From Myxococcales bacterium (lineage in GTDB: Bacteria > Myxococcota_A > UBA9042): a stretch of 64,000 bases of DNA. The stretch is taken from assembly GCA_009692465.1 (NCBI GenBank), contig SHZD01000005.1, positions 689 through 64,688 on the forward strand. Reading direction: 5' to 3'. Below are positions 47,874-64,000 of the stretch, piece by piece (within the stretch, counting starts at the first letter, position 1; the number at the start of each line of letters is the position of its first letter). The notes under the pieces are model-generated. The model saw nothing but the letters and a program-made list of their open reading frames with translations, was not told where the DNA came from and did no database searches. A program made the translations under genes and the position numbers.

Positions 47874-48361
47874 GCCAGGTTTGGGCAATTCAGGTCGGAG
47901 CTAGGAGCGTGTCGGAGTATTCCAACCCGCTCCTAGCGCCGTCTGGCTAGACGGCGGCAACTGTCCGAAACTGCACGGATTCACTCCGGGCAGTTCTCGG
48001 ACAGTTGAGAATAGTTGACTGGCTAGGAGCCTGTCAGATCGTAATAGATTCATCGTGTATAACCTGATAGACATTTCACAACCGATTGATTTCCGACAGG
48101 CTCCTAGCGCGGCACGTGGGTCAGCCGTCCTGTGTTTCTGCCAGCTACCCACGCAATGCGGCGGTTCGATTGCGGTCCAGTACTGAGTCAAGTCTGGGCC
48201 CCAGTGCGAGGTCAAACTTAGGCGGTTACAGACTCAAACTCGGGCCACCACAGCGTCAAACTTGCGGTTGCTCCAACCGTTCGCCGCTGAACCGTGAACG
48301 GCACAGGCTCGCCCTACCAGCGGCAACCGAGGCCTTGGCAAATTCGCCAGCGTTTTCGCCG

Positions 48362-48437
48362 GCAGGCCAGGCGGGATTCGAACCCACAACCCGCAGATTT
48401 GGAGTCTGCCGCTCTACCGTTAGAGCTACTGGCCTGC
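48362..48437 (-). tRNA. tRNA-Trp (anticodon CCA)
   Basis: The minus-strand sequence gcaggccagtagctctaacggtagagcggcagactCCAaatctgcgggttgtgggttcgaatcccgcctggcctgc folds as a cloverleaf. Canonical position between rpmG and secE. Confidence 0.9.
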
Positions 48438-48526
48438 GGATGGCCTGCTGCATGGAGCAGGCCGACGACCGCACCGCAAATCGCGAGAACGCAACGCCGA
48501 ACGGCGCCAATTCCTCACCGACTGGG

Positions 48527-48706
48527 CTACTTGGTTTCCTTGTGGTCCGTGTGCTTGCGCTCAAAACGACAGTACTTCTTGAACATCAGTCGACCAGGCT
48601 TGGTCTTCTTGTTCTTGCTAGTCGTGTAGCGCGAAACGCCGGGCACACCGCTTGAGCGGCAGCTTTGGCATTCCAAGTGGATGATGGAGCGATTTGATTG
48701 AGCCAT
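48527..48706 (-). CDS. rpmG: 50S ribosomal protein L33
   Basis: Translated by hand: MAQSNRSIIHLECQSCRSSGVPGVSRYTTSKNKKTKPGRLMFKKYCRFERKHTDHKETK (59 aa). Absent from the ORF track because it is under 60 aa. Confidence 0.9.
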   Translation of the reverse strand: MAQSNRSIIHLECQSCRSSGVPGVSRYTTSKNKKTKPGRLMFKKYCRFERKHTDHKETK

Positions 48707-48877
48707 TTTGCCTCCGGCGCGGTGGCCGCTACCAGGATATCAGCGGGGTGCGCCGATTGGGGGCGCTCTGCGAGAGTGTCAACGCTGAGCGCCGCAAGCA
48801 GCGCCGCCCCAGCCGGGGTAGCGTTGCCTGCGGCAGTCAGCGCCCAATTGTCGCCCACCGAAGCGGGCGCAGGGCGG

Positions 48878-50071
48878 CTACTTTTCCTTGCTGATCTCAG
48901 CCACGACGCCGGCGCCGACGGTGCGGCCGCCTTCGCGAATGGCAAAGCGCATACCAGTTTCCATGGCCACCGGGTGGATGAGCTTGACCATCAACTCCAC
49001 TTTGTCGCCCGGCTTGACCATCTCAACGCCTTCGAGCAAGTCGATGTCGCCGGTGATGTCGGCGGTGCCGAAGTAGAACTGCGGCCGATAGCCCTTGAAG
49101 AACGGCTTGTTGCGGCCGCCTTCGTCTTTGGACAACACGTACACCGAAGCCTTAAAGGTGGTGTGCGGGGTGACCGAACCCGGCTTGCACAAGGACTGAC
49201 CGCGCTCGACGTCGTCGCGCTTGACACCGCGCAACAGCGCCCCGAGATTGTCGCCGGCTTGGCCCTGCTCCACAACTTTGTGAAACATTTCAATGCCGGT
49301 AACCACGGTCTTGATGGTCGGCTTGATACCGACAATCTCGACTTCCTCATTGAGCTTGATGGTACCGCGATCGACGCGCCCGGTGACCACGGTACCGCGG
49401 CCCGAAATCGTCATCACGTCTTCAACCGGCATCAGAAACGGCTTGTCGAACTGGCGCACCGGCTCGGGGATGAAGGTGTCGAGCGCCTCCATCAGGGCGT
49501 CGATCGACGCCGAACCGAACTTGCTGTTGACCCCGTTGAGGGCCTCCAGAGCTGAGCCCTGCACGATCGGCGCATTGTCGCCGTCGAACTCGTACTTGCT
49601 CAACAATTCACGCAGTTCCATGTCGACCAATTCGAGCAGGTCGGGATCGGCGGCGTCGCATTTGTTCAGGTAGACCACCATCTTGGGCACGCCAACCTGC
49701 CGAGCCAGCAGCACGTGCTCCTTGGTCTGCGGCATCGGGCCGTCGGTGGCAGCGCACACCAGAATCGCGCCGTCCATTTGCGCCGCGCCGGTAATCATAT
49801 TCTTGATGTAGTCGGCGTGGCCGGGACAATCGACGTGGGCATAGTGGCGCTTGATGGTCTCGTATTCCACGTGTGCGGTCGAAATCGTGATGCCGCGCGC
49901 CTTTTCTTCAGGCGTCTTGTCGATCTCGTCGAACGACTTTGCCTTACCCAGGCCTTTTGCAGCTTGGTGCTTGGTAATCGCCGCCGTCAGCGTGGTCTTG
50001 CCGTGGTCGACGTGGCCGATGGTTCCCACGTTGACGTGGGGTTTGTTGCGTTCGAATTTGGCCTTGGCCAT
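48878..50071 (-). CDS. tuf: elongation factor Tu
   Basis: [33 protein letters not shown]... is a full-length EF-Tu. Confidence 0.98.
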
Positions 50072-50229
50072 GACGAAAATCCTCCCGCCAACAGGTGGCG
50101 TATGCTAAAGAAACCGAAAACTTCAACTACGAACATCGGAAACTGACGATTCGCAACGGCGCCTTTGGCAATTGCCCAAGATCACTCCCGAGCATCGCCT
50201 CAGTTTGCCGGACAGCAGGGCACCCGCCC

Positions 50230-50305
<76 letters not shown>

Positions 50306-50595
50306 AACACCGCGTCGGCCGCGGCGCTCGCATTCGCACTCCACTTCAGCGGTCCCCTAACTGGCGTTCGAGGCACTGGCAACCTGTGCGCGAAGCACTG
50401 GCCGCAGGGTGAAATGAAGGCCCCATCCTTGGCTAGACAGGTGATTTGGACCCAACCAGACACCAGCGCAGCTGCGACCCACTTGCCAGCATTGCTGCTA
50501 GGTCGCTGGCGAGGGTTGGCCGCCACTTTTGGCACCGATTGTCTCCGCGAAGGCGACAGTGTTGGTGCAAGCACTGAGAATTATTGAGCACCACG

Positions 50596-50669
50596 GAGCG
50601 GGAAACGGGGTTCGAACCCGCGACATTCAGCTTGGAAGGCTGACGCTCTACCAACTGAGCTACTCCCGC
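50596..50669 (-). tRNA. tRNA-Gly (anticodon TCC)
   Basis: gcgggagtagctcagttggtagagcgtcagccttCCaagctgaatgtcgcgggttcgaaccccgtttcccgct on the minus strand. Confidence 0.9.
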
Positions 50670-50702
50670 AAACCGAGTTACGGTGCGCGACAGGGTCACG
50701 CG

Positions 50703-50786
50703 GTGGAGGGTGGTGGATTTGAACCACCGTAGGCTAATGCCGGCAGATTTACAGTCTGCTCCGATTGACCACTCCGGCAACCCTCC
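50703..50786 (-). tRNA. tRNA-Tyr (anticodon GTA), long variable arm
   Basis: ggagggttgccggagtggtcaatcggagcagactGTAaatctgccggcattagcctacggtggttcaaatccaccaccctcca on the minus strand. Confidence 0.9.
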
Positions 50787-50868
50787 TACGAGTCTTGGTC
50801 TCTCAATGTGTGCGGCGGCGCGCAAGTCAACCCCAGAGCCGAGCTGGCACCCGTGTGCGACCTGAACT

Positions 50869-50908
50869 GCACCCGACTCTCACCCGACTCTCACCCGACT
50901 CTCACCAC
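50869..50908. repeat. 12-bp tandem repeat x3 (cacccgactct-) in the tRNA-Tyr / tRNA-Thr spacer
   Basis: Read directly from the sequence. Confidence 0.85.
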
Positions 50909-51066
50909 AACAGAGGCTTGTTCGTGACTGGCCGTCATCATGATTGGCGCCAGGACCAGCGAAGGCGACGTGTGCAACGGCCAATGCCCCTGCCCGCGCC
51001 GGACCCAACGAGTCTCGCCGGTTACGCGCCGGCCGCCGAGCCGCAGCCGTTTGGTCGGTGTGGGCC

Positions 51067-51143
51067 GGAGCTGGCGATGGGACTTGAACCCGCAACCTGC
51101 TGATTACAAATCAGCTGCTCTGCCAATTGAGCTACGCCAGCGC
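51067..51143 (-). tRNA. tRNA-Thr (anticodon TGT)
   Basis: gcgctggcgtagctcaattggcagagcagctgatttGTaatcagcaggttgcgggttcaagtcccatcgccagctc on the minus strand. The Thr-Tyr-Gly-Thr-tuf order matches E. coli thrU-tyrU-glyT-thrT-tufB. Confidence 0.9.
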
Positions 51144-51174: not shown

Positions 51175-51446
51175 CTTGCCCTGCCCTGCCTTGCCCTGCG
51201 TTGCCATGCTCAGCCTTGCGACTGTCATTTTTGCAACTGTCGAGATAACAGTCGAGGTCGCTCTTGCCCAGACCCAATTTAGTCCGAGTCCTGCCAGATT
51301 TAGTCCGAGTCCTGCCAGATTTAGTCCGAGTCCTGCCAGATTTAGTCCGAGTCCTGCCAGATTCAGTCCGAGTCCTGCCAGATTCAGTCCGAGTCCTGCC
51401 AAAATGCGCCTAGATCCGGCCAGAATCAGTTTAAGTCCTGCCAGAA
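51175..51446. repeat. pentamer repeat (ttgcc/ctgcc x7, 51175-51210), then a 21-bp tandem repeat (tttagtccgagtcctgccaga) x6 plus 2 degenerate copies (51278-51446), upstream of the tRNA-tuf operon
   Basis: Read directly. Located between the rlmB 3' end and the first tRNA of the operon. Confidence 0.9.
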
Positions 51447-51567: not shown

Positions 51568-52866
51568 TCAACGCTGGGCGCGCGCCAGATGCAACGCCAG
51601 AGTCGCGAACGCCGATACATTAAGCGATTGCATGTCGGAACTACCAGAAAGCTTAACGACTTCGTCACAACGCTTGCGGACCAGAGGACGAATTCCTCCG
51701 CCTTCAGCCCCAAGCACCAGCGCCGTGATCGGGGCGAACCGGTAGGTGGCCAGATCGATACTCGAAGCATCCAGGCCTGTGCCGACCACAAACACCCCGC
51801 GCTCCTGCAATATCTGAAGAGTTCTCGCTAGATTGACCACGCGAACGACCGGCACACTGGCCGTGGCGCCGCGCGAAATCCGTTCGACCACGGGCGTCAC
51901 TCCGGCGGCACGATCTTGTGGAATAATGACACCGTGCACGCCAAAAAAGGCCGCTGAGCGCAAGATCGCCCCCAGGTTGCGCGGGTCCGTGATCGAATCG
52001 AGCACCAGCAACAAAGTTCCATCGGCACAGCCCTGCGGCGGCGCGATCGCGTCGAGATCGGCATAGTGAAATTCGACAACTTGCGCTGCAACTCCCTGAG
52101 GATTAGCTGGATCATCAAAAGCTGGCGGTTCGCGCTCAACTACGGCCACTTTCTTGGCTGCGGCAACGGTGTGAATTTGTGCGCAAAGGCGCGGATCGCG
52201 CGACCACAAGATGACTTGCAGAACGCGCTGGGGGGCACGCTCGACCAACGCCAGCACCGCGTGGATACCGGTCACCCAGTCCGCGGGTGGCCCATTGTGT
52301 TCGCGGGGGCTGGTCAAGTGGGGACTGTGGCCGCGATCGTTGTGGTCGCGACTGGGCCCACCACGGTCGCGCCAATCCCCGCCGCCTGCTCCGGGCCTAG
52401 AGTTTGGACGCCACGGGCCACGGTCGCGATCGCTGCGCTGGCGGTCGTGGCTATCACTACTTGAGCGGTCCGGGCTGTTACCGCGTTCTCGATCCGGGCT
52501 GTTACCGCGTTCTCGATCCGGGCTGTTACCGCGTTCTCGATCCGGGCTGTTACCGCGTTCTCGATCCGGGCTGGCACTGCCGGGGCGATCACGGCGGTCG
52601 CGATCGTTGCGGTCGCGGTCAGCGGAACCGCGGCCTGGTGAGGCGCTGCGGCGCTCATCGGGACCCGCACTGCCCGCGCGATCGCGGTCAGCGCCCCGAG
52701 GCGGCACCGGCGGATGTCCAGAGCCCTGCGGCGGATGTCCAGGGCGCTGCGGCGGATGTCCAGGGCGCTGCGGCGAGCGGTCGAATCGATTCGCCCCACG
52801 GCGATCGTCAGGGGGCCGATCCATGGCTGCCTCCGGTGCGTGCGGCATCTCGAGCCGCGTTTTCAA
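51568..52866 (-). CDS. rlmB: 23S rRNA (guanosine-2'-O)-methyltransferase RlmB (SpoU family) with a roughly 185-aa Arg/Asp/Pro-rich N-terminal low-complexity extension
   Basis: SpoU core TLLLVLDSITDPRNLGAILRSAAFFGVHGVIIP...LVLGAEGGGIRPLV. The N-terminal tail contains 4x DRERGNSP, encoded by a 24-bp tandem repeat at about 52440-52575. Confidence 0.8.
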   Translation of the reverse strand: MKTRLEMPHAPEAAMDRPPDDRRGANRFDRSPQRPGHPPQRPGHPPQGSGHPPVPPRGADRDRAGSAGPDERRSASPGRGSADRDRNDRDRRDRPGSASPDRERGNSPDRERGNSPDRERGNSPDRERGNSPDRSSSDSHDRQRSDRDRGPWRPNSRPGAGGGDWRDRGGPSRDHNDRGHSPHLTSPREHNGPPADWVTGIHAVLALVERAPQRVLQVILWSRDPRLCAQIHTVAAAKKVAVVEREPPAFDDPANPQGVAAQVVEFHYADLDAIAPPQGCADGTLLLVLDSITDPRNLGAILRSAAFFGVHGVIIPQDRAAGVTPVVERISRGATASVPVVRVVNLARTLQILQERGVFVVGTGLDASSIDLATYRFAPITALVLGAEGGGIRPLVRKRCDEVVKLSGSSDMQSLNVSAFATLALHLARAQR

Positions 52867-53548: not shown

Positions 53549-55296
53549 GGCAGCAGACTTGAAGAGGACAGAGCCGAGCCGGCACGAGCGATCGTCAATG
53601 CAGCGGCGAGGCGGTCAATCAGGCCGTCGATCGCGACCTCGAACTTGTCGCCGCTATGGCGCAGCTTGAGCTCGACCACCCGCTCGGCGGCGCGTTTGCC
53701 GACGATGACCTGCACGGGATAACCGATGAGATCGGCGTCGTTGAACTTGATGCCAGGCCGCTCATCGCGGTCATCGATCACGGCTTGGACACCCGCCTGC
53801 AGCAACTCGGCATAGACCTGCTCGGCGATCTCGGCGGCCGGACCTGCGATCGCCATGGGCAGCACCGCGACTTCATACGGAGCCAGCGCGACTGGCCACC
53901 GGATTCCGCGGGCGTCGTGGTTCTGCTCGATGGCGGCAGCCAGAATTCGGGTGACCCCAATTCCATAGCAGCCCATTTCGAAAACGGCTTGCTTGCCGGA
54001 CTCATCCAGAAACGTCGCCTGCATGGCCTCAGAGTACTTGGTGCCCAAATAGAAGACGTGACCGACCTCTATCCCGCGAAAGCTGCGCAACCGCCCGCTG
54101 CAGCGCGAACACGGGTCGCCGGCGACAGCCATGCGCAAATCCGCAAACTGCACATGCCGCAAATCGCGGCTGGGCACCACGTTGACTACATGGTGCTGCT
54201 TGCGGTTGGCGCCACATGCAGCTGTCGGCATGGCCTTGATTTCGCTGTCCGCAACCATCTTGACCGGCGTTGGGTCGAGCGCGCCAACGTAGCCCGGCGG
54301 CAGGCCGGTGGTCTGAGCGAACCATTGGGCATCCGCCAATACCAAGGCCTTGCAGCCAAGGACCTTCTTAATCTTGATTTCGTTCACTTCGCGATCGCCA
54401 CGGACGAAAGCGACCGCGGGCTGGTCATCGGCCATGTACAACACAGCCTTAATGGTCTGGTCCGCCGCGCAACCGAGGAATTGACAAAGACTTTCAATGC
54501 TTTTTGCCCCAGGGGTCTCCACCAATTTGGCCGGACCTACCTGTGGGGCGCCGTCAATAGGCACCCAAAACCCCGGATCGGACAGTGGCGCTTTCTCGAC
54601 ATTGGCCGCAAATTCACAGGTGTCACAGGCGACAATGGCGTCTTCGCCCGCTTCCGCTAGCACCTGAAATTCATGGGACATGGAACCACCGATATTACCG
54701 GTGTCGGCTTCCACGGGTCGAAAATCCAGGCCCAACCGCGAAAAAATTCGGTTATAGGCAGCGAACATCTTCTGGTAGGACTGATGCGCGCCAGCCACGT
54801 CGGCGTCAAACGAATAGGCATCTTTCATGACGAATTCGCGACCGCGCAGTAGCCCCGCGCGCGGGCGCATCTCATCGCGAAATTTGGTCTGAATCTGATA
54901 CAGATTGACGGGCAATTGCTTGTAACTGCGAATATCCTTGCGGGCCAGGTCGACTACAACTTCTTCGTGGGTCGGGCCGACGCAATAATCCGCCTGCTTG
55001 CGATCCTGAAGCCGAAGCAATTCAGGACCATAGACTTTCCAGCGCCCCGACTCTTGCCACAACTCGGCTGGAATGATGGCCGGCATAAAAACTTCGTGGG
55101 CCCCAGCGCGGTCCATTTCCTCGCGGATAATCGCTTTGACTTTCTTGAGGCTGCGCACGCCCAAGGGCAGAAAACTGTAGATGCCGGCGGCAAGGCGTCG
55201 AATGTAGCCTGCGCGCACCAACAACTGATGCGACACCGTTTCAGCGTCCTTGGGCGCCTCGCGCAGAGTTGGAACGTGTAAACTCTTGATACGCAT
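53545..55296 (-). CDS. proS: proline--tRNA ligase
   Basis: The N-terminus MRIKSLHVPTLREAPKDAETVSHQLLVRAGYIRRLAAGIYSFLPLG is canonical bacterial ProRS, with class II motifs and an editing insertion. Confidence 0.93.
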   Translation of the reverse strand: MRIKSLHVPTLREAPKDAETVSHQLLVRAGYIRRLAAGIYSFLPLGVRSLKKVKAIIREEMDRAGAHEVFMPAIIPAELWQESGRWKVYGPELLRLQDRKQADYCVGPTHEEVVVDLARKDIRSYKQLPVNLYQIQTKFRDEMRPRAGLLRGREFVMKDAYSFDADVAGAHQSYQKMFAAYNRIFSRLGLDFRPVEADTGNIGGSMSHEFQVLAEAGEDAIVACDTCEFAANVEKAPLSDPGFWVPIDGAPQVGPAKLVETPGAKSIESLCQFLGCAADQTIKAVLYMADDQPAVAFVRGDREVNEIKIKKVLGCKALVLADAQWFAQTTGLPPGYVGALDPTPVKMVADSEIKAMPTAACGANRKQHHVVNVVPSRDLRHVQFADLRMAVAGDPCSRCSGRLRSFRGIEVGHVFYLGTKYSEAMQATFLDESGKQAVFEMGCYGIGVTRILAAAIEQNHDARGIRWPVALAPYEVAVLPMAIAGPAAEIAEQVYAELLQAGVQAVIDDRDERPGIKFNDADLIGYPVQVIVGKRAAERVVELKLRHSGDKFEVAIDGLIDRLAAALTIARAGSALSSSSLLP

Positions 55297-55690
55297 TACT
55301 AGTTCACCAATCGCTTCTTGAGGTCTAGGCCATTGTCAACTGGCCGACAGGCGTTGCCCAACCGAATCAAAGCTTGATAGCGGGCTATGCTAGTCGAACT
55401 GCACTTGGGCTCGGCTTGCACACGCGGCCAAACGTCGGGTCGCCAGCTTGCAGCGCGTTGATCGGACCAGCACCGTCTTGACCGGCAACTGCAGGGCCCA
55501 AGCGGTGCTCGATCGGCTGATATCCCGGTGGAGAACGGGCCGAGCGCAGCGATTCAGGCGGCACAAGAGAGCCCTTCTGAATGCCGAGTGAGCCCGCGTG
55601 CGCAAAGTACCCACTTTTGCCAGTGAGCCAAGTGTGCCGTTTCGCTGGCTGTGCAGCATTGGCGGGCTGCCTCTGCTCGACCAATTGCTG

Positions 55691-58600
55691 CTAGTTATCA
55701 AACACTTCGTGCATCGTGCGCGTAATATCCAGCAGCGACACCCGAAATTGGTACTCGGAGAAAAGGTAGTTGTCCTGCAACTGGGCCAACTGCTTCCATT
55801 TCTTCAACTCGGCCTCCGCCAACTGCACGGCGAGGAACCCCGGATTGAGGGTGTCTTTGGCCACCCGCGGCGCAATGTAGGTCTTGCCCGACAACGGATC
55901 CGTAAAGGTAGCGATGTCTTCGGGAGCCAAGCTGGCCGGCAGGTCGACTTTGGCATGGTGACCGTCCAAGAACACCCGCGACACATCCAAGTACGAGCGG
56001 CTAAAGCCCTTATACAACACGGCCATCCCGTAATAGGCAGCCTGAAGCGGCATGCGGAAGCGACTGGACGGGAATGTCGGCCGGCCATCGGGGAACACGT
56101 CGTACTTGAGACAGCCTTCTTTTTCCGCATCTGTCGCCGCCGCGGCAAACGTCGAACAGGCCTTGGCCGTGTTGGCCACGCCGGTGCCTACCCAATTGCG
56201 GCGCTTGAGCGAGTCGCTCTTGCTATCCTTGCCGCGCACGATTTGCCAGCCGTAATAGGTGGCGTCTTCCACCGAAATCGCCGCCAGCAAGTTGGTCAGT
56301 TGGCGCGGAAACACGTTGTAATAGCTGACTAGAAACCGGCGGGTATCCTCGGATTCATTAAAGCCGATACGCCCGTACATGGTCGGGTCGGCCAACATCG
56401 TCAGCGCAGCCAAGCGATCGTAAATCTGGCCACCGCTCTCGGGCCGAGTGACGTAGCCGTTGTAGTCCCAGCTCGGGTACAGCGGCCGGCAGCCCATGCG
56501 CTCGTCAATCAACCGCGTATCGGTGAACTGGGCTTGGTCGACGTTGGTGTACGGTTCAAAGCGGCCCTTGGTCGAATTAAACCCGTAGTAGCCGCAAGAT
56601 GGCCGCGCCATGACCTGAGCCAAGGTGTTGAAGCCGAGCAATGTCGAGTAGGCACCCGGCAAGCCGCCGTTGATATCCGCGTTGTAATCTTGGCCAAATT
56701 TCTTGGTCCACCAGTCGTTTTTCTCGTACATGGAGAAGTCGACGGCCCAGTACTGGAACTGGCGCGTGACCCGCCAAAATGCGCCCTGTACGCGGGACGA
56801 ATAGGTCTGCGGATGGAACGTCTCGCTGTCGCGGCTGTAGCCGTAGAACCACCAGTAATTCTCGTAGTCATCCAAGGCATTGCGAGTGATTTCATAGGCG
56901 TCCGCGCCCTCGTCACCAGTCGCACAGGACGGCGTGTAGCCGTTGTATTCGTCGGAGCAGAACCGATACGGCACCTCAACCACACTGTCGTCGCGGCAAA
57001 ACTTGTCGTCACCAAAGGGCAGACACTTCTTGCCACCGGTGCATTGATTATCTGCGCTGCAGCGATCCCCGTGCAATTGGCTCCACGGCACATCTTTGCG
57101 CTTGTGGATCTGCTCCACGCCGCCAAAGTAGGCAGGTAGCGCCGACCAGTGCAACCGCCGGTTGAGGATATTGACATCGGTATTGCCGTCGTGGCGGACC
57201 ATCTTGAGGCCCGGGGTGGTCATTTCTGGCGTCTCCAGGTACTTGCTTGCGGCAACCAGCGGACCCGCGCCGTCCGGATCAGCCGTCAGTTTGGCTGGGG
57301 CCAAACCGTCAAAAACCTCGATCAGATTGCCGTAGCCGAACTTGATCGCAGCGCGGTCATAATAGCCGACCCCGGCGTCGCGCCCATTGAATTTGGCGGT
57401 ATAGTCCATCACCGACGCCAACTGCATCTCGCGAACTCCGCCCAGCGCCTGCTCAGGCGTGTCGGGCATCAAAGCGTGAAAGTCGTCCGGCGTCTCGGTC
57501 TTGGCATTGGGCTTGCGCTTGAGATTCCAGTAGTTCTTGTGGAAGTTCATCGCGTCAGTGGAAGCCTCAAAATTGTGGCGCAGACCCAAGGTGTGGCCCA
57601 CTTCGTGCTCCTGGGTGCCGAGGTAAATCCGCTTCCACAGCGCCAACTTGAACTTCTCACGCAGTTGGAACGTCAGGTCGCGCCCCAACTCTTGAGTCTT
57701 GCGCAATCTGGCGTCGGCGGTTGCCGTGTACAGCGGCCCGGGCAACTGGTTGACCTGCTCCAAACCAGGGTAGTTGGCATTGGCCACATTGAGCGCCAAC
57801 CGAATTTTTTGCATCAGCACCGGAGTGGCGCAGTCCGCCCACTGGGCTTTGCCGGAGCTGGCTTGGGCACAAACTCGGCCCTTGCCAGCGCCAAACGATT
57901 GGAATTCACCTAATTGAGCGCAATCACCACCGGCCGCAGCGGCGAAGTGGTCGGACAACGTCGTGTCTGGCTCCTTGGCGTACATTTGGCAAAACGCTTG
58001 GTCGTATTGCACGCCGTACTGAGCCGCCAATCCAAGCAAGGCATTGTCCGCAAAATCGGCAAAGTGGATGGTCTTGGTCCCCAGATCATGGATGGCCTTC
58101 TCGCGGCTGGCGATCGCAGCCTTATGATTCCACGACGCCAAGCTGAACTGCGAAAGTTGGTCCTTGGTCAGCTTCTTGGGGGTCTTGTCCTTGCTGAACA
58201 TCGCGCGCGGATCGCGAAACAGCGCGGCAATTGTATGGCCGTCGTCGTCGCCAGCGAGCATGGCGTCGAGCTCAGGCGCTTTCTTGATCATGTTGAAGCG
58301 CGACTGCGCCCAAAAGCCGCCGTTGTCATCGTGAGGCAGCCCGGTGGTCAGCAGAGTTTGGCGCACGTCGGGATCGACCATGCCCTTGACCGCGGCCCGG
58401 ACCTGCTCCAGAGACTGCGGTTCGTCCTTGCGTGGAGTGGGAGCGTCCAAAGTCGCCGCGATCAACTTGGCTGAATGAAAGGTCTTTTCAGCGGCCCGCC
58501 GCACATCATTGACGTCCTTGACGCCGCTGAGGAGCTCGATCGTTTGCAACGCGGACTCGGCGCCCAATTTCATCACGCCGACGTAGGCATGGGCACTGGC

Positions 58601-60274
58601 GGAAACAATTTCGCCGCTGATCGGGTCTGCCGCCGAGGGTCCGTAGCCATACAGACCAGCCTGAATCGGATTGGGCACGGCGTGCATCACGCTCCAGCGC
58701 AGGTCACCAAAGCGGTGGGGACGGTCCATTTCCTTGCAATACTTGGCGGCTGGCGATTTGCTGCCCGACCACTCGGCGACATCAAGTCCTTTCGAGATCG
58801 CATCTTTGGCGGCGGCATTGGAGTTTTCGCACAACACAAACATCGGGTGGCCCGGCTTGGCGCCCTTGGTGGCAAGCACAACGGCTTCCAAGGGTTCCGA
58901 CCACTTGCGCGCAATTTCCTTCGACTCGGGGACCAACTCGCGGGGATGGTTTTCGTTCATGTAGTACACAATCGGCACGGGCGTCATCTTGGTGTAGTCG
59001 AAGTCGCCGCGCCAAACCGTGGTGGTCGATTCCGGTACGCACTTGAGTTTGCCCTCAGCGCTGCCATCGTCTGCCGGATTCACCTGACACTTCACGTACT
59101 TGTCCCACACACGGTGGCGCTCCATTCGCCGCAATGCGCCGGGGTGGGTGCTGCCAAACTGCAAGTCGTAGGTCGGACGTTCAGTGCGAAAGTAGCCAAA
59201 CTTCTCAAATTCGACGTCGTTGGAATCGCGAGCGACGTACTGGCGCTCAGGTTCTTTTTCAAATTTGGGCACTTGCAGAAAGGAATAGCGAATCTTGAGT
59301 TCTTCGGAAGCGCAATCGTAAACGCCACCGACGTACCACGGGTAAAAGAAGCAAATCGGAATTTCGCCAAACCCTTCAAGCATGGTGGTCGGCGGACTGG
59401 TGACGGCGCGTATGGTGTAGTTGAACCAGCGCTGCGCGACGCTGTCATTGAGCAGGCTGTCGCCTTTCTCGAATTGGTCCTCACTAGGAGCATTGTCGCC
59501 CTCGTAGATGATGGCCGCTCCGCCGGCAGCGACGGAACCGGCCAGCACGTCGTGGTCGAAGCTCATGACCTTTTGGCTACCCCAAGCGACCCGAATAAAT
59601 TCGCGGTCATACCAGTGGCGATCGGACGTATTCTCTTCCTCAACGTTGGTCTGCTCGCCGGTGGCGGCGCTGTAAGCGTGGGTCTTGTCAAAGTGAGAGG
59701 TCACCGGGTAGGCCAAAACCGGGGCCCCGCGGTAGATGTACTTGGTCGCCTTGAGCACGCAAAAGCCGTGGTGGCTGCCCTCGCCGTTCCACTTGTCCTT
59801 TTGGCGCCAACGGTCGGCACAACGGGCACCGGCGTGGCAATCGGCATCCGCTTTGCAGGTCAGCTGCTGGTAGTCCTGCGGTACAGCCTGCTCGACAATC
59901 TTGCCGTTCTTGTCTTTGAGGGCGATGTCGGTGTCGGACTTTTGGGCATAGGCCTCTGAGCCAGCCATGAACTCATAAGTGCGGTAGAAGTACAGGCCTT
60001 TTTCCTGAACATCGAACACGCCGCGGACCATTTTCGACATCTCGCCCGGAAAGCTCGACGCCACGGTAAACTCGGTCTGCACGACCGTGCTGCGCATGTA
60101 CCACTCGATGTTGCCGACCCCGGAACTCTTGCCGGTGTCGCCCAAGAGATGGGTCTTGGCGAGGTAGTTAGGCTGGACTCGGCTGATTTCAGGCCGATCT
60201 TGAGCACAGGCCCCCACAGTGCCGACGAGGGCAAGGGCGAAGCCGAAACTAGAGAGGCGGTAGGACTGCATGGT
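55691..60274 (-). CDS. giant secreted lipoprotein zinc metalloprotease, Met-zincin-like (HEVGHTLGLRHNF ... SVMDY), paralog 1
   Basis: Lipoprotein signal MQSYRLSSFGFALALVGTVGAC at the internal start. HExxHxxGxxH zinc site plus a Met-turn about 65 aa downstream, and Cys-rich modules. The track ORF extends 47 aa further upstream, to 60415. Confidence 0.8.
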   Translation of the reverse strand, partial: TMQSYRLSSFGFALALVGTVGACAQDRPEISRVQPNYLAKTHLLGDTGKSSGVGNIEWYMRSTVVQTEFTVASSFPGEMSKMVRGVFDVQEKGLYFYRTYEFMAGSEAYAQKSDTDIALKDKNGKIVEQAVPQDYQQLTCKADADCHAGARCADRWRQKDKWNGEGSHHGFCVLKATKYIYRGAPVLAYPVTSHFDKTHAYSAATGEQTNVEEENTSDRHWYDREFIRVAWGSQKVMSFDHDVLAGSVAAGGAAIIYEGDNAPSEDQFEKGDSLLNDSVAQRWFNYTIRAVTSPPTTMLEGFGEIPICFFYPWYVGGVYDCASEELKIRYSFLQVPKFEKEPERQYVARDSNDVEFEKFGYFRTERPTYDLQFGSTHPGALRRMERHRVWDKYVKCQVNPADDGSAEGKLKCVPESTTTVWRGDFDYTKMTPVPIVYYMNENHPRELVPESKEIARKWSEPLEAVVLATKGAKPGHPMFVLCENSNAAAKDAISKGLDVAEWSGSKSPAAKYCKEMDRPHRFGDLRWSVMHAVPNPIQAGLYGYGPSAADPISGEIVSASAHAYVGVMKLGAESALQTIELLSGVKDVNDVRRAAEKTFHSAKLIAATLDAPTPRKDEPQSLEQVRAAVKGMVDPDVRQTLLTTGLPHDDNGGFWAQSRFNMIKKAPELDAMLAGDDDGHTIAALFRDPRAMFSKDKTPKKLTKDQLSQFSLASWNHKAAIASREKAIHDLGTKTIHFADFADNALLGLAAQYGVQYDQAFCQMYAKEPDTTLSDHFAAAAGGDCAQLGEFQSFGAGKGRVCAQASSGKAQWADCATPVLMQKIRLALNVANANYPGLEQVNQLPGPLYTATADARLRKTQELGRDLTFQLREKFKLALWKRIYLGTQEHEVGHTLGLRHNFEASTDAMNFHKNYWNLKRKPNAKTETPDDFHALMPDTPEQALGGVREMQLASVMDYTAKFNGRDAGVGYYDRAAIKFGYGNLIEVFDGLAPAKLTADPDGAGPLVAASKYLETPEMTTPGLKMVRHDGNTDVNILNRRLHWSALPAYFGGVEQIHKRKDVPWSQLHGDRCSADNQCTGGKKCLPFGDDKFCRDDSVVEVPYRFCSDEYNGYTPSCATGDEGADAYEITRNALDDYENYWWFYGYSRDSETFHPQTYSSRVQGAFWRVTRQFQYWAVDFSMYEKNDWWTKKFGQDYNADINGGLPGAYSTLLGFNTLAQVMARPSCGYYGFNSTKGRFEPYTNVDQAQFTDTRLIDERMGCRPLYPSWDYNGYVTRPESGGQIYDRLAALTMLADPTMYGRIGFNESEDTRRFLVSYYNVFPRQLTNLLAAISVEDATYYGWQIVRGKDSKSDSLKRRNWVGTGVANTAKACSTFAAAATDAEKEGCLKYDVFPDGRPTFPSSRFRMPLQAAYYGMAVLYKGFSRSYLDVSRVFLDGHHAKVDLPASLAPEDIATFTDPLSGKTYIAPRVAKDTLNPGFLAVQLAEAELKKWKQLAQLQDNYLFSEYQFRVSLLDITRTMHEVFDN

Positions 60275-60371
60275 GGGCTCCGAAGCAGGTTGCTGCTGCT
60301 GGGCGTCAAGGATCGTAAGGCGTTGAATACTCGATTTCAGGCTAACGGATTGGGTTAGCGCGGCTAGGATG

Positions 60372-63300
60372 CTAGTTGCCGGAGCCGATGCTGCCGTACA
60401 GCGCGTACAGTTCACGCAGGCGGTCGAGGATTTCGATCTCCTGTTTCATTTGCTGGCTCATCATTTCTTTGTCAGCGCCCTGGGCCTTGGTCCACCAAGT
60501 ATCGCCGCGGCAGGAGGAACTGTCGGTGCAAGTGCCGGTGGCGCAACCGCTGTCGCCAGCGTTGCACGGCTGGCACTGACTGCCGTCGGCGCAACCGGTC
60601 TTGAGCATGTTGAGTTTCTTGCATACCGTAAACGCTGGCGAGTAGCGACTGACGCTGTAGTTGGGCCGCGGCGCCACGTAGGTCTTTTTGCCAAACGGGT
60701 CTTCAAACTCGCAAGTCGCGATGACGACTTCCTTGTTGTCGACCTTGGCTTTGCCCAAGGTAAACTGCTCGCCGTGACCCTTGATCCACACGGCCATGGC
60801 GTCGGTGTAACTGGGGTCAAAGCCGGCGGGAAGATTGGCGATGGACTGCCAAGCGGCGAACAGTCGCAAGCCATGATTGATGACGCTGGGGGCGACCCGG
60901 GTCGCGGTGGTGTCGACAGGTTTGAAGGGATCGACGGTGCGATAGGCCAGCTTCTTGGTCGTCGGATCGGGGGCCGCGGTGCCGGCAAACTGTTGAATGT
61001 CGCCGGCGATCAACCCGCCGAGCACCCGCATGAGTTCATTGGGATAAATAGTGTTGTAGCCGATCGCGGTAGCGCGAAACACCGGCAACTGCTCGCCAAC
61101 GTATTCCGACAGAAATCCGGTGGTCGAGTTGGTCAGCGCCTGCAAAGCCGCGACTTTGTCCCAGTACGCGCCGATCCACAGCGGATGGTCGAACTGGTAG
61201 TAGCCTTTTTGGGTGGCGAAGGTCGTGTACGGAAATTTGCCGGTGCCCAGCGGAATGTCCAGCACCGAGTTTTGACGACCGGTCTCATAGTCAATGTTGG
61301 TATAAGTATTCGATTTCTTATCCAACACATACGAACCTGGCGCCGGCGTGGCCAACATATTGGTCAAAACCCGGAAGCTGTTTTCGCAGGCACGACGCAG
61401 AGGCGCAAAGAAGCGCTCGCTGGTGTCGCGGTAAGCAAAGCCGGGGTAGACCCGATAGATATTGTTGTAGATCGCGTAGTAGCGACCGGCGGAAATGATC
61501 GGCGTCAACCAACGGTCTCGGATGCGCGCCATGTAGCTCAGGTAGCTGCCACCGCGGCCGAACCACAGGCGCTCGCGCTTGAACGCGTCGAATATATAAT
61601 ATTCTTCGAGTGCTTCGGCCGCATGGTGGACGATTTCTTCCATGTTGTGACCGGTATCGAAGTAGTAGCAGCCCATCGAACCGCCGCGGTATTCGTCCGA
61701 GCAGTACTTGTAGGGCACTTCGTGGAAAGTGCGATCCATTTCGGACCGGAAGAAGTTGTCAGCCATCGACCGCTCCGCTTGCACGAAACGATCCGGCACC
61801 GCGATGCGTTTTACGTTGTATTCTGGCGGCATCCAGTCATTAATAAACGAGAATTGCTGCATTTGATACTTGTTGTATTCAGTGGCGCCAAAACCGGAAG
61901 CGTCGGCGATGCTGTAGCCGGTGTTCTTGGCCCACGCGCGCACGCGATCGGTCAAGAACTCGGTGTCTTCATAGACTTCAGTCAGTTCGCCGTAACCGTA
62001 TTTGATGGCGGCGTAATCGTATTTGCCCAGCCCCCACACGTCGGCGTTGATTTTTTGGCCGTAGTCCATGACGGACGAGTACTGGTACTCCGTGCGCCTG
62101 CCCTTGGATTCTGCCGCGGTCAGGCCGGTTCGCGACATGTACTTGCGCGCGTCGCCGACCTTGGGTGTAAACTGGACCGAGGTGCGCGGCAGTTTGTTGC
62201 GGGCATTGATGCAAAAGCTTGCCGTGCACAGCTCGCCAGCTTCGCACTCCTCAGCCTTGGTGCAGGTCACCTTGTCATGGCAAATGTCACCGACGCAGGC
62301 GCCGGCGCCACCACAAATATCGGCCGTGGCGGCTGTACACGGGGTGCGCACTTCGATGTGTTGCTGACAAACACCGACTACTTTGGCGTTGGCGTCGACG
62401 CATTGTTTGGCCTTGTCCGCACAAGCCGTGTTGGTGGGACAATCGTCATCTGATTCGCAGGCGTGCTTGAGGTCGCACGACTCGCCCAAGGTGCCCGCTT
62501 CGCAGAAGCTGTCGGCGGTGACGGTAACGCCATTCCAGATGATAGTGCCGCAAGCGACCAGTTCGCGGGTTCGACCGCCCTTTTGCTCGTCAAAGTAGGG
62601 GTCGAAATAGTTCACCAAGTCGGTTGACGCCGAAAAGTTGTGGCGCAAACCGACGGTGTGGCCAACTTCGTGCTCCATCGTGGCCTTGTACAGGGCCACT
62701 GAAATCGCAGTGCGCAAAGCGTCGCCCTTGTAGCAAATGTTCTTGCCAATGCCGTCGCCCACATAGACCTCGGTCGGCGTTTCGCCGTCGTCGCACTTCA
62801 TGCGCTGGGCCAAGCCCAAGATGGCCGGATCTTGAAACTCGGCCAGCTCAATCGAGTTGATGCCCAAGAACTGCATGCGGCGCTTTTCGTCCATCGCGCC
62901 GCGCGGCGAGGCAAACCCAAGCGGGCTAATACTCTCAATCATTTCTGGATTGACGGCCTGACCGGGCTGGGACTGGCCCTGACTGCCGACCAGCACCATT
63001 TCATCATTGATCATCGCCGCCTCATAGGCGGACCCCTTGATCTTCTCCGCGCGCATCTGCAGAGCATCCAAATCGACCGCGGGCAGGTTGTCCACCAACC
63101 ACTTGTTCAGCGCTTTGGGGCTGGTTTGTTGCGCAATCTCGCGGGGTGTCAACTCTTTAGCCTCACCGCCAGAAGTGGCTGCGGCTGCGGCGGCGCGGTC
63201 GGTCAGGCTAAACGAGGCTCGCTCGGCGGCGAATTCGAGAGACTGCTGCGCTGAGAGTTCCGGCAACTTATCCGAAATGGCGCCAAACAGGGTTTTATTC

Positions 63301-64000
63301 TTGCCTTCCGCAGACTTGCGCAACACATAGTCCTTAATGTACTTGCCCGAGGCGAGGTCTTTGCCGTCCAAGTCACCGTTGATGAGGTCAATGACGTCTT
63401 TGGCGTACTGCGAATAGGTCAACTGTGAGGCGCCGTAGACATTGGCGATAGCAAAGAAGGTCTCGCCGGTGTCCGGATCCTGAGCCGATGGGCCATAGCC
63501 GAGCGGCGAAGCGGCGTGGACTTTGGTAACCCAGTACATGTAGTTGTAGCGGGCATCGCCATGAATTTTCAGTTTGGCTGCTTCGGCAACTTCGCCGCCG
63601 TCCTTGCGGTCAGCGCAAGGGTTGTAGGCTTTTCCGGGTTTGCCATAGGTTTTGCCGTCGGCTACCCAATTGCGGCAGTCGTTCATGGCGTCCTTGCTGC
63701 CGAGTTCCTTGCTGGCCTTGCATTGGGCAAAAGTGCGCGCGAACTTGTTTTCGCACACCACAAAAGCGGCAGGCAAGCTGTCTTTGATGGCCTTGCGGCG
63801 GGCGACGTCGCTAGCGTTGAGCTTTTGCTGCCAACCGTAGCACTGGCTGACGCCTGCGTGGGTGCCACAACTCACATCGGCACGATGGCCGGGCACAACC
63901 AGAGTCACGTGGGCCATATCGCCGGCCTGGAACAGAAACTCAGTCCCTTGGGCGTAGGGCAGACCAGCCGACATCCGCACGCCATTGATGCCGACTTCGT
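60372..64000 (-). CDS. giant zinc metalloprotease, Met-zincin-like, paralog 2 (N-terminus beyond window end)
   Basis: HEVGHTVGLRHNFSAST ... SVMDYG, with a roughly 180-aa Cys-rich insertion between them. Many blocks are colinear with paralog 1 (AAIKYGYG, YKYCSDEY). The frame is open to the window end. Confidence 0.8.
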   Translation of the reverse strand, partial: EVGINGVRMSAGLPYAQGTEFLFQAGDMAHVTLVVPGHRADVSCGTHAGVSQCYGWQQKLNASDVARRKAIKDSLPAAFVVCENKFARTFAQCKASKELGSKDAMNDCRNWVADGKTYGKPGKAYNPCADRKDGGEVAEAAKLKIHGDARYNYMYWVTKVHAASPLGYGPSAQDPDTGETFFAIANVYGASQLTYSQYAKDVIDLINGDLDGKDLASGKYIKDYVLRKSAEGKNKTLFGAISDKLPELSAQQSLEFAAERASFSLTDRAAAAAATSGGEAKELTPREIAQQTSPKALNKWLVDNLPAVDLDALQMRAEKIKGSAYEAAMINDEMVLVGSQGQSQPGQAVNPEMIESISPLGFASPRGAMDEKRRMQFLGINSIELAEFQDPAILGLAQRMKCDDGETPTEVYVGDGIGKNICYKGDALRTAISVALYKATMEHEVGHTVGLRHNFSASTDLVNYFDPYFDEQKGGRTRELVACGTIIWNGVTVTADSFCEAGTLGESCDLKHACESDDDCPTNTACADKAKQCVDANAKVVGVCQQHIEVRTPCTAATADICGGAGACVGDICHDKVTCTKAEECEAGELCTASFCINARNKLPRTSVQFTPKVGDARKYMSRTGLTAAESKGRRTEYQYSSVMDYGQKINADVWGLGKYDYAAIKYGYGELTEVYEDTEFLTDRVRAWAKNTGYSIADASGFGATEYNKYQMQQFSFINDWMPPEYNVKRIAVPDRFVQAERSMADNFFRSEMDRTFHEVPYKYCSDEYRGGSMGCYYFDTGHNMEEIVHHAAEALEEYYIFDAFKRERLWFGRGGSYLSYMARIRDRWLTPIISAGRYYAIYNNIYRVYPGFAYRDTSERFFAPLRRACENSFRVLTNMLATPAPGSYVLDKKSNTYTNIDYETGRQNSVLDIPLGTGKFPYTTFATQKGYYQFDHPLWIGAYWDKVAALQALTNSTTGFLSEYVGEQLPVFRATAIGYNTIYPNELMRVLGGLIAGDIQQFAGTAAPDPTTKKLAYRTVDPFKPVDTTATRVAPSVINHGLRLFAAWQSIANLPAGFDPSYTDAMAVWIKGHGEQFTLGKAKVDNKEVVIATCEFEDPFGKKTYVAPRPNYSVSRYSPAFTVCKKLNMLKTGCADGSQCQPCNAGDSGCATGTCTDSSSCRGDTWWTKAQGADKEMMSQQMKQEIEILDRLRELYALYGSIGSGN

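Follow-up and report, generated by a model that had tools for sequence, protein, structure and literature searches.

The 64,000-nucleotide stretch of Myxococcales bacterium DNA analysed in the current work (assembly GCA_009692465.1, contig SHZD01000005.1; hereafter referred to as the window) is filled, between positions 55691 and 64000, by two long open reading frames (ORFs) on the minus strand, the downstream one being named P1 and the upstream one P2. We consider it reasonably probable that these ORFs constitute an operon of two lipoprotein metzincin-like peptidases, the upstream one of which carries a disulfide-rich domain with an exosite or structural function. They would represent a conserved two-gene cassette of an uncultured, mostly freshwater lineage of Myxococcota, encoding two anciently duplicated and very large lipoproteins (1873 and 1526 aa) each of which contains, as its central element, a zinc site of the metzincin type, with the signature HExxHxxGxxH, a [ST][VIL]MDY sequence resembling a Met-turn, and a C-terminal helix motif. 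Both would most likely be active zinc endopeptidases, anchored to the envelope or the cell surface and belonging to the DUF4953 ‘Met-zincin’ kind, an activity that we infer from these motifs. In P2, a domain of ~160 aa that folds autonomously would have been acquired early, in a single event, in the loop that leads from the third zinc ligand to the Met-turn. A small 4-Cys unit (C-x5-C-x5-C-xn-C), also present in other loops of both proteins, would have been inserted and multiplied in tandem to build most of this domain, the number of units having later varied among sub-lineages (8 to 24 Cys). With such an addition, the catalytic domain would be larger in its lower, C-terminal half, and the insert would serve, next to the primed side of the cleft, as a rigid exosite that binds substrates or partners, without taking part in catalysis itself.

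If confirmed, this arrangement would represent a new metzincin architecture, in which a whole disulfide-rich domain has been added after the third zinc ligand and ahead of the Met-turn. Giant lipoprotein peptidases would then be established as a conserved pair in a little-known and mostly uncultured group of Myxococcota (largely represented by metagenome-assembled genomes (MAGs) from lakes), a group for whose predatory or polymer-degrading way of life secreted and surface proteases are likely to be central. The arrangement would furthermore provide an experimental handle, through proteins with and without the insert and through the paralogue pair itself, on the evolution of exosites inside catalytic domains. 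No long-standing question is opened by these findings, and the family is already flagged as a zinc metalloprotease by Pfam and NCBI.

Zinc site and lipoprotein signals of the P1-P2 pair

P1 starts with an ATG at position 60271, which is preceded by the sequence GGAG 6 nt upstream, and its stop codon ends at position 55691. P2 terminates with a TAG at 60374..60372 and its reading frame is open up to the window edge, its 5’ end, signal peptide and lipobox being located beyond position 64000. These latter features were therefore read solely from P0001, a database protein of 1873 aa (NCBI ‘MAG: hypothetical protein EXR77_01385 [Myxococcales bacterium]’) to the C-terminus of which the visible 1208 residues of P2 are 100% identical. 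A preliminary description of this DNA had proposed a tandem pair of Met-zincin-like lipoproteins of about 1200-1530 aa. The pair is borne out by the adjacent ORFs, the DUF4953 scores, the lipobox signals and the BLASTP paralogy presented below; the size range holds for P1, and not for P2, for which it reflected the truncation at the window edge.

Judged by their sequences, P1 and P2 are paralogues: BLASTP alignment revealed 43% identity near the zinc motif, 25% identity across 559 aa C-terminal to SVMDY (E 3e-21), and 23% identity in a block located ~300 aa upstream and containing GDxRYN…GYGPS…DPxTGE. When compared to P1, P2-type proteins possess three added segments, being a segment of ~271 aa, the Cys-rich insert and a 32-aa C-terminal segment with 6 Cys. 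The first of these (corresponding to residues 420..690 of homologue P0002) was matched to Pfam DUF4397 in several of the orthologues, among them P0077 at E 4e-8, and falls below the threshold in the P2 of this window, where it lies mostly past the window edge. Features specific to P1 are a 51-aa segment with 4 Cys and ~75 additional residues ahead of the zinc motif.

Both proteins carry, in the same order, the sequence HEVGHT(L/V)GLRHNF, the sequence SVMDY and the helix motif YDxAAIK(F/Y)GYG (Table 1). The first two had been reported for both ORFs in the preliminary description, and their coordinates were verified by translation. The HExxHxxG/NxxH/D signature of metzincin clan MA(M) is present in P1 as well as in P2, while the helix motif of P1 resembles the D..AI...YG helix of matrixins and serralysins. 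Across 113 aligned homologues, residues H, E, G, H, L, H, N and F of the zinc motif are invariant, as are the M and Y of SVMDY, the family consensus of the Met-turn-like sequence being [ST][VIL]MDY.

PF16313 (DUF4953, ‘Met-zincin’) represents the sole Pfam match of the two proteins, whose scores of 34.5 bits (P1) and 38.9 bits (P2) exceed the gathering score of 24.2, as had been proposed as a check of the pair’s identity; the E values obtained for the two proteins are 1.7e-8 and 7.6e-10. The HE[VI]GHT.GLRHNF motif is common to this family and to P1 and P2, which are far larger than the 316-position model and match it well over ~25 positions. A full-length match to the model was not obtained: positions 12-36 are matched, and a P2 fragment which follows the insert and contains the helix motif matches positions 77-125 (E 0.0024). 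This second, weak match places SVMDY and YDYAAIKYGYG where the Met-turn and the C-terminal helix of the family are expected. Some of the homologues carry the NCBI name ‘zinc-dependent metalloprotease’.

SVMDY is considered the best candidate for the Met-turn, as the preliminary description had assumed, because its M and Y are invariant, because of the alignment to DUF4953 positions 77-125, and because its Tyr occupies the position, two residues past the Met-turn Met, of the ‘tyrosine switch’ described for pappalysins (PMC11674741). Serralysins, astacins and pappalysins share with P1 and P2 the extended motif together with S-x-M-x-Y. In astacins and serralysins the Tyr is likewise found two residues after the Met.

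At the level of solved structures, a phmmer search of P1 against Protein Data Bank (PDB) sequences retrieved no match, and a profile of P1- and short-type homologues (alignment A4) searched against all PDB sequences returned metzincins as its top matches (serralysin, alkaline protease, MMP-1, MMP-3, ADAM33, snake-venom metalloproteinase and archaemetzincin), none of which was significant and all of which were confined to the zinc motif. The top match, to serralysin, reached an E value of 0.02 on the basis of the motif only, and RTX repeats are lacking, so that P1 and P2 were not assigned to the serralysins (M10B). A Pfam scan of both proteins detected neither RTX nor other domains besides DUF4953, and a fold match to peptidases or to any solved metzincin was not obtained. 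The metzincin-like assignment is thus based on the motifs and their conservation and not on a fold match: it has support from the sequences, and is unconfirmed as regards the fold.

The absence of a fold match, together with the more than 1000 aa of each protein in which no peptidase domain is recognizable and the decoration of these huge, multi-domain proteins with Cys-rich and DUF4397-like modules, would also agree with P1 and P2 being structural or adhesive envelope lipoproteins, i.e. pseudo-peptidases or zinc-site scaffolds in which the Cys-rich domain serves as an adhesion module. We regard this as unlikely: inactive metallopeptidase homologues usually lose their catalytic residues, whereas 113 sequences, diverging down to ~23% identity, retain without exception the catalytic Glu, all three His, the Met and the Tyr, a degree of conservation that would not be expected after a loss of catalysis. 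Active zinc peptidases remain the preferred interpretation of P1 and P2.

The prediction that both are lipoproteins is supported by their signal sequences, the lipobox pattern [LVI..][ASTVIG][GAS]C being present in P1 (…LVGTVGAC) and in full-length P2 (…TIGGVAGC, seen in P0001 only and thus outside the window). The lipobox Cys of P1 is invariant in alignment A4, and a lipobox-like motif was identified in 61 of 82, 60 of 71 (the P1-type set) and 55 of 66 homologues. In P0001 the lipobox Cys is residue 62, and a start at Met 44 (MRAAALTT…) would generate a normal lipoprotein signal of 19 residues; the start annotated for P2 in the database is probably too far upstream (P0001 residues 1-42).

The cysteine-rich insert between the third zinc ligand and the putative Met-turn of P2

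The spacer between the third His and the Ser of SVMDY comprises 53 aa in P1 (55 to the Met) and contains no Cys, the distance being shorter than the approximately 65 aa previously estimated. The corresponding P2 spacer comprises 188 aa and contains 16 Cys. A Cys-rich insertion at this site had correctly been noted, though its description as a module of roughly 180 aa and 22 Cys has to be revised to a domain of ~160 aa within the 188-aa spacer and to 16 Cys. The net excess of P2 over the P1 spacer is ~135 aa, and the Cys-rich core of the domain covers 114 aa. This core consists of three tandem C-x5-8-C-x5-C-x4-6-C units, frequently of the form C..D.DC(P).G..C…C, and four further Cys. Single 4-Cys units also occur in other loops, namely at residues ~138-172 and ~1068-1090 of P1, in the N-terminal region of P2 and in the 6-Cys C-terminal segment of P2.

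All 16 insert Cys are invariant in 18 aligned inserts (alignment A5). Within the clade of proteins that are at least 44% identical to P2, the insert has a pairwise identity of 0.43, which falls to 0.33 when Cys columns are left out, as compared to 0.54 for the whole region and 0.70-0.78 for the catalytic motifs. This pattern of conservation fits a rigid Cys scaffold with a variable surface, as would be expected of a scaffold or binding module.

Database searches yielded Pfam Cys modules below their gathering scores only, these being DUF7107 (21.2 versus 24.6 bits, E 3.8e-4), EB (11.1 versus 24.3 bits) and Dickkopf_N (11.9 versus 25 bits), with a Cys spacing that is similar to that of the P2 insert. 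A phmmer search of the insert against 1.84 billion representatives produced six matches, three of which belong to its own family; the others are the unrelated Cys-repeat protein P0239 and two seemingly spurious hits, one to a protein with Big_9/cadherin repeats and one to a protein carrying a T9SS sorting tail. A profile of the 18 inserts searched against 5.8 billion proteins gave no match and also missed the orthologues, and is for that reason uninformative.

Structure prediction was performed with AlphaFold for two segments. Model 1 comprises residues 699-1873 of P2 (1175 aa, 43 sequences in the alignment) and has a mean predicted local distance difference test (pLDDT) score of 77 and a predicted template modelling (pTM) score of 0.79, with block means of 85-95 for the insert. 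Model 2 comprises the 246 aa from the active-site helix through the helix past SVMDY, in which residues 40-200 (~160 residues) attained a pLDDT of 90-98 and both flanks remained below 50. Because the insert is predicted at high confidence in model 2 despite its poorly predicted flanks, it is predicted to form an autonomous, beta-rich domain. Large insertions interrupt the catalytic region, namely a helical segment of ~200 aa that precedes the active-site helix of P1 as well as of P2 and, in P2, the Cys-rich domain. It was further observed that the lowest confidence in model 1 coincides with the most conserved motifs (GDARY, the GYGPS region and SVMDY), the variable Cys insert being among the best-predicted parts. 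The low confidence at the active site may be due to the absence of the N-terminal third of the protein and of the metal; model 1 lacks the N-terminal 698 residues, including a ‘RPIVYH…ADGWS…’ segment which, by analogy with matrixins, may supply the catalytic domain with its first strand and backing helix.

The insert Cys most likely form disulfides, eight in P2, because the protein is predicted to be exported and because the Cys count of the insert is always even among the homologues. The dense and regular spacing of these Cys could alternatively reflect the binding of metal, either as structural zinc or as iron-sulfur clusters, and a precedent is provided by archaemetzincins, for which PMC3427221 gives four conserved Cys around the Met-turn (HEXXHXXGXXHCX4CXMX17CXXC). 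Metal binding is nevertheless deemed improbable, and more so than the structural role considered above: lipoprotein export signals direct folding to an oxidising compartment, the number of Cys is invariably even, and both the C-x5-C-x5-C-x4-6-C spacing and the sub-threshold likeness to DUF7107, EB and Dickkopf_N fit disulfide knots and not CxxC metal sites.

Several observations weigh against active peptidases with a disulfide-bonded insert. The DUF4953 match comprises just 18-25 residues (positions 12-36) of a 316-position model, an NCBIfam scan returned no family model for P1 or P2, and literature searches did not retrieve a characterised member of the DUF4953/PF16313 family. In addition, pLDDT in model 1 drops below 50 at the conserved active-site pieces GDARY (GDxRY) and SVMDY, and mature P2 contains 45 Cys (P1 contains 24), an odd number which makes full pairing impossible.

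Compared with known metzincins, the P2 insert can be regarded as a variation and not as a new principle, because irregularities near the same site exist in leishmanolysins, pappalysins and archaemetzincins. The Cys of archaemetzincins, which are small and cytosolic enzymes, bind a second, structural zinc, and their four Cys are situated in a short segment, in contrast to the 16 Cys of P2 in an exported domain of ~160 aa. In leishmanolysins (GP63, M8) a large insertion is located inside the extended zinc signature (PMC11957388), between the Gly and the third His, whereas the P2 insert follows the third His and is a Cys-rich repeat domain. Pappalysins contain disulfides within the segment from the third His to the Met (PMC11674741). 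In cytophagalysin this spacer measures 42 residues, from H241 to M284 (PMC11674741), as opposed to the 188 residues of P2, and P1 and P2 are devoid of RTX or CUB/EGF-type appendages. The preliminary description had called an insertion at this position unusual for metzincins, which these precedents qualify; it applies to the extent that we know of no description, including in the literature searched, of a whole 16-Cys domain, large enough for eight disulfides, between the third His and the Met-turn.

In metzincins, the residues past the third ligand are part of the lower subdomain, the C-terminal one, by which the cleft is delimited (PMC11674741), and an added domain would enlarge that side. 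A role of the insert as an exosite, as a gate or in partner binding is plausible. A more far-reaching proposal, to which we assign a low probability, is that P2 and P1 form an obligatory heteromeric protease machine at the cell surface that is confined to this lineage of Myxococcota, and in which the insert, with its eight disulfides, adopts an undescribed fold, serves as a gate or exosite on the primed side and sets substrate choice; if true, this would constitute a domain-in-active-site-loop solution not known in other metzincins.

Homologues, gene order and origin of the insert

The homologues were divided into three types. P2-type proteins (n=86, median length 1817 aa) have a spacer of 104-259 aa with 8, 12, 16, 18, 22 or 24 Cys, P1-type proteins (n=71, median 1503 aa, about 1400-1550 aa) have a spacer of 48-65 aa without Cys, and short-type proteins (n=68, median ~1310 aa) have a spacer of 39-87 aa with 0-2 Cys, so that P1-type and short-type proteins taken together (n=139) span spacers of 39-87 aa with 0-2 Cys. 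Every complete P2-type protein that is at least 44% identical to P2, from independent MAGs, contains 16 Cys at near-fixed spacing. All recovered genome loci are MAGs, assigned to Myxococcales, Myxococcota, Deltaproteobacteria or Proteobacteria, and several isolate names are lake-derived.

Considering that the Cys-rich spacer is found in all 86 P2-type homologues from many independent assemblies and sources, the insert is not a product of mis-assembly, an objection that had been raised beforehand and that is further countered by the grouping of insert-bearing proteins in a single clade of 77. A chimeric contig, or a true Met-turn located closer to the zinc motif than SVMDY, to which the low AlphaFold confidence at SVMDY might point, is very improbable: the artefact is refuted by the shared architecture, the first 160 residues of the P2 spacer are without Met, and the lone spacer Met (KYMSR, in the linker after the Cys core) is not conserved, being V or L in orthologues. 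SVMDY is, by comparison, the only conserved Met motif, and the D..AAI..GYG helix follows it at the usual distance in both paralogues.

A neighbour-joining tree was calculated from 1040 well-aligned columns, and is crude and without support values. In this tree, the 77 insert-bearing proteins included (out of the 86 P2-type homologues) are monophyletic, as are the P1-type proteins, and Cys numbers group by sub-clade. P0089, with a 48-aa spacer and no Cys, branches as sister to the insert clade. A single origin of the insert is shown by this sequence-based topology, and the gain would have been early. The insert-less P0089 is also encoded in a P2-like/P1-like tandem, its downstream neighbour being P1-like (579 versus 340 bits), and duplication and tandem arrangement are therefore older than the insertion. 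The comparison of orthologues that had been suggested for dating the insertion thus indicates that it is old, yet younger than the tandem pair.

The order of a P2-type gene followed by a P1-type gene on the same strand was observed in 10 out of 10 distinct related loci long enough to reveal it. These tandem loci differ in their flanking genes, have gaps that range from an overlap to ~100 bp, and share 32%-75% identity; short-type proteins can occur solitarily. Between P2 and P1 of the window, no terminator-like site was found on the minus strand, and a scan of 55200..60500 for promoters and terminators returned none on that strand, counts being at shuffle level. The P2-P1 pair is, from its gene arrangement, probably an operon.

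In some lineages, a protein of ~325-370 aa without a Pfam hit is encoded directly upstream of the P2-type gene and on the same strand (Table 1). The L001 and L004 versions of this protein share 25% identity (E 1e-13), and it is absent from L003 and from the close relative L006. It may represent a third, facultative member of the cassette, and looked like an outer-membrane beta-barrel upon visual inspection of its sequence.

Table 1 Coordinates of the P1-P2 pair, its motifs and the associated upstream protein (window positions, except for the last row, which refers to related loci)
Feature	Position	Strand	Basis or remark
P1, downstream paralogue, without Cys-rich insert	55691..60271	-	1526 aa; ORF and Pfam DUF4953, 34.5 bits
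P1 signal peptide with lipobox (MQSYRLSSFGFALALVGTVGA, then C), …LVGTVGAC	60206..60271	-	Translation
P1 extended zinc-binding motif HEVGHTLGLRHNF	57569..57607	-	Translation; H, E, G, H, L, H, N, F invariant
P1 putative Met-turn SVMDY	57401..57415	-	53 aa past third His
P1 putative C-terminal helix motif YYDRAAIKFGY	57332..57370	-	G, D, A, A, Y conserved
Intergenic spacer, P2 stop to P1 start	60272..60371	.	100 bp
P2, upstream paralogue	60372..>64000	-	C-terminal 1208 of 1873 aa inside window
P2 extended zinc-binding motif HEVGHTVGLRHNF	62634..62672	-	Translation; Pfam DUF4953, 38.9 bits
P2 inserted domain, ~160 aa, predicted beta-rich (P0001 ~1137-1297)	62103..62585	-	AlphaFold confidence limits
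Cys-rich core of insert, 16 Cys in 114 aa	62211..62552	-	Translation
P2 putative Met-turn SVMDY	62061..62075	-	188 aa past third His
P2 putative C-terminal helix motif LGKYDYAAIKYGYG (YDYAAIKYGYG)	61989..62030	-	Translation
Upstream protein, ~325-370 aa	L001 8878..9978; L004 8957..9931; L010 4800..6026	Same as P2-type gene	

Neighbouring genes and repeats

Gene calls in the window confirmed that the pair is followed on the same strand by proS, pyrF, an rlmB-like gene and tuf, the full order being proS, pyrF, a SpoU/rlmB-like gene, four tRNA genes, tuf, tRNA-Trp, secE, nusG, rplKAJL and rpoB. A functional link between the pair and proS, pyrF, rlmB or tuf was considered and rejected. Since proS follows the pair in the window and in six related loci and is absent from four others, the neighbourhood from proS to tuf is interpreted as lineage synteny and not as a functional link.

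The SpoU/rlmB-like methyltransferase ORF (51568..52866, minus strand) exhibits an N-terminal extension of ~190 aa of low complexity, which is rich in Arg, Asp, Pro and Ser (…SPDRERGN repeated) and is encoded by perfect tandem repeats of 24 bp (4.4 copies, 52469..52573) and 21 bp (3.2 copies, 52708..52775); its true start codon may be located further downstream. A further tandem repeat of 21 bp, present in eight copies of which the first six are 99% identical, is situated at 51277..51445, between tRNA-Thr(tgt) (51067..51141) and the 3’ end of the rlmB-like gene. The minus-strand region 48361..51141 contains tRNA-Thr(tgt), tRNA-Tyr, tRNA-Gly(tcc) and tRNA-Thr(ggt) upstream of tuf, and tRNA-Trp downstream of it, ahead of secE and nusG, this order of tRNA genes, tuf, tRNA-Trp and secE/nusG being a common bacterial arrangement. 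An 11-bp repeat of 3.4 copies is located between the tRNA genes at 50870..50906.

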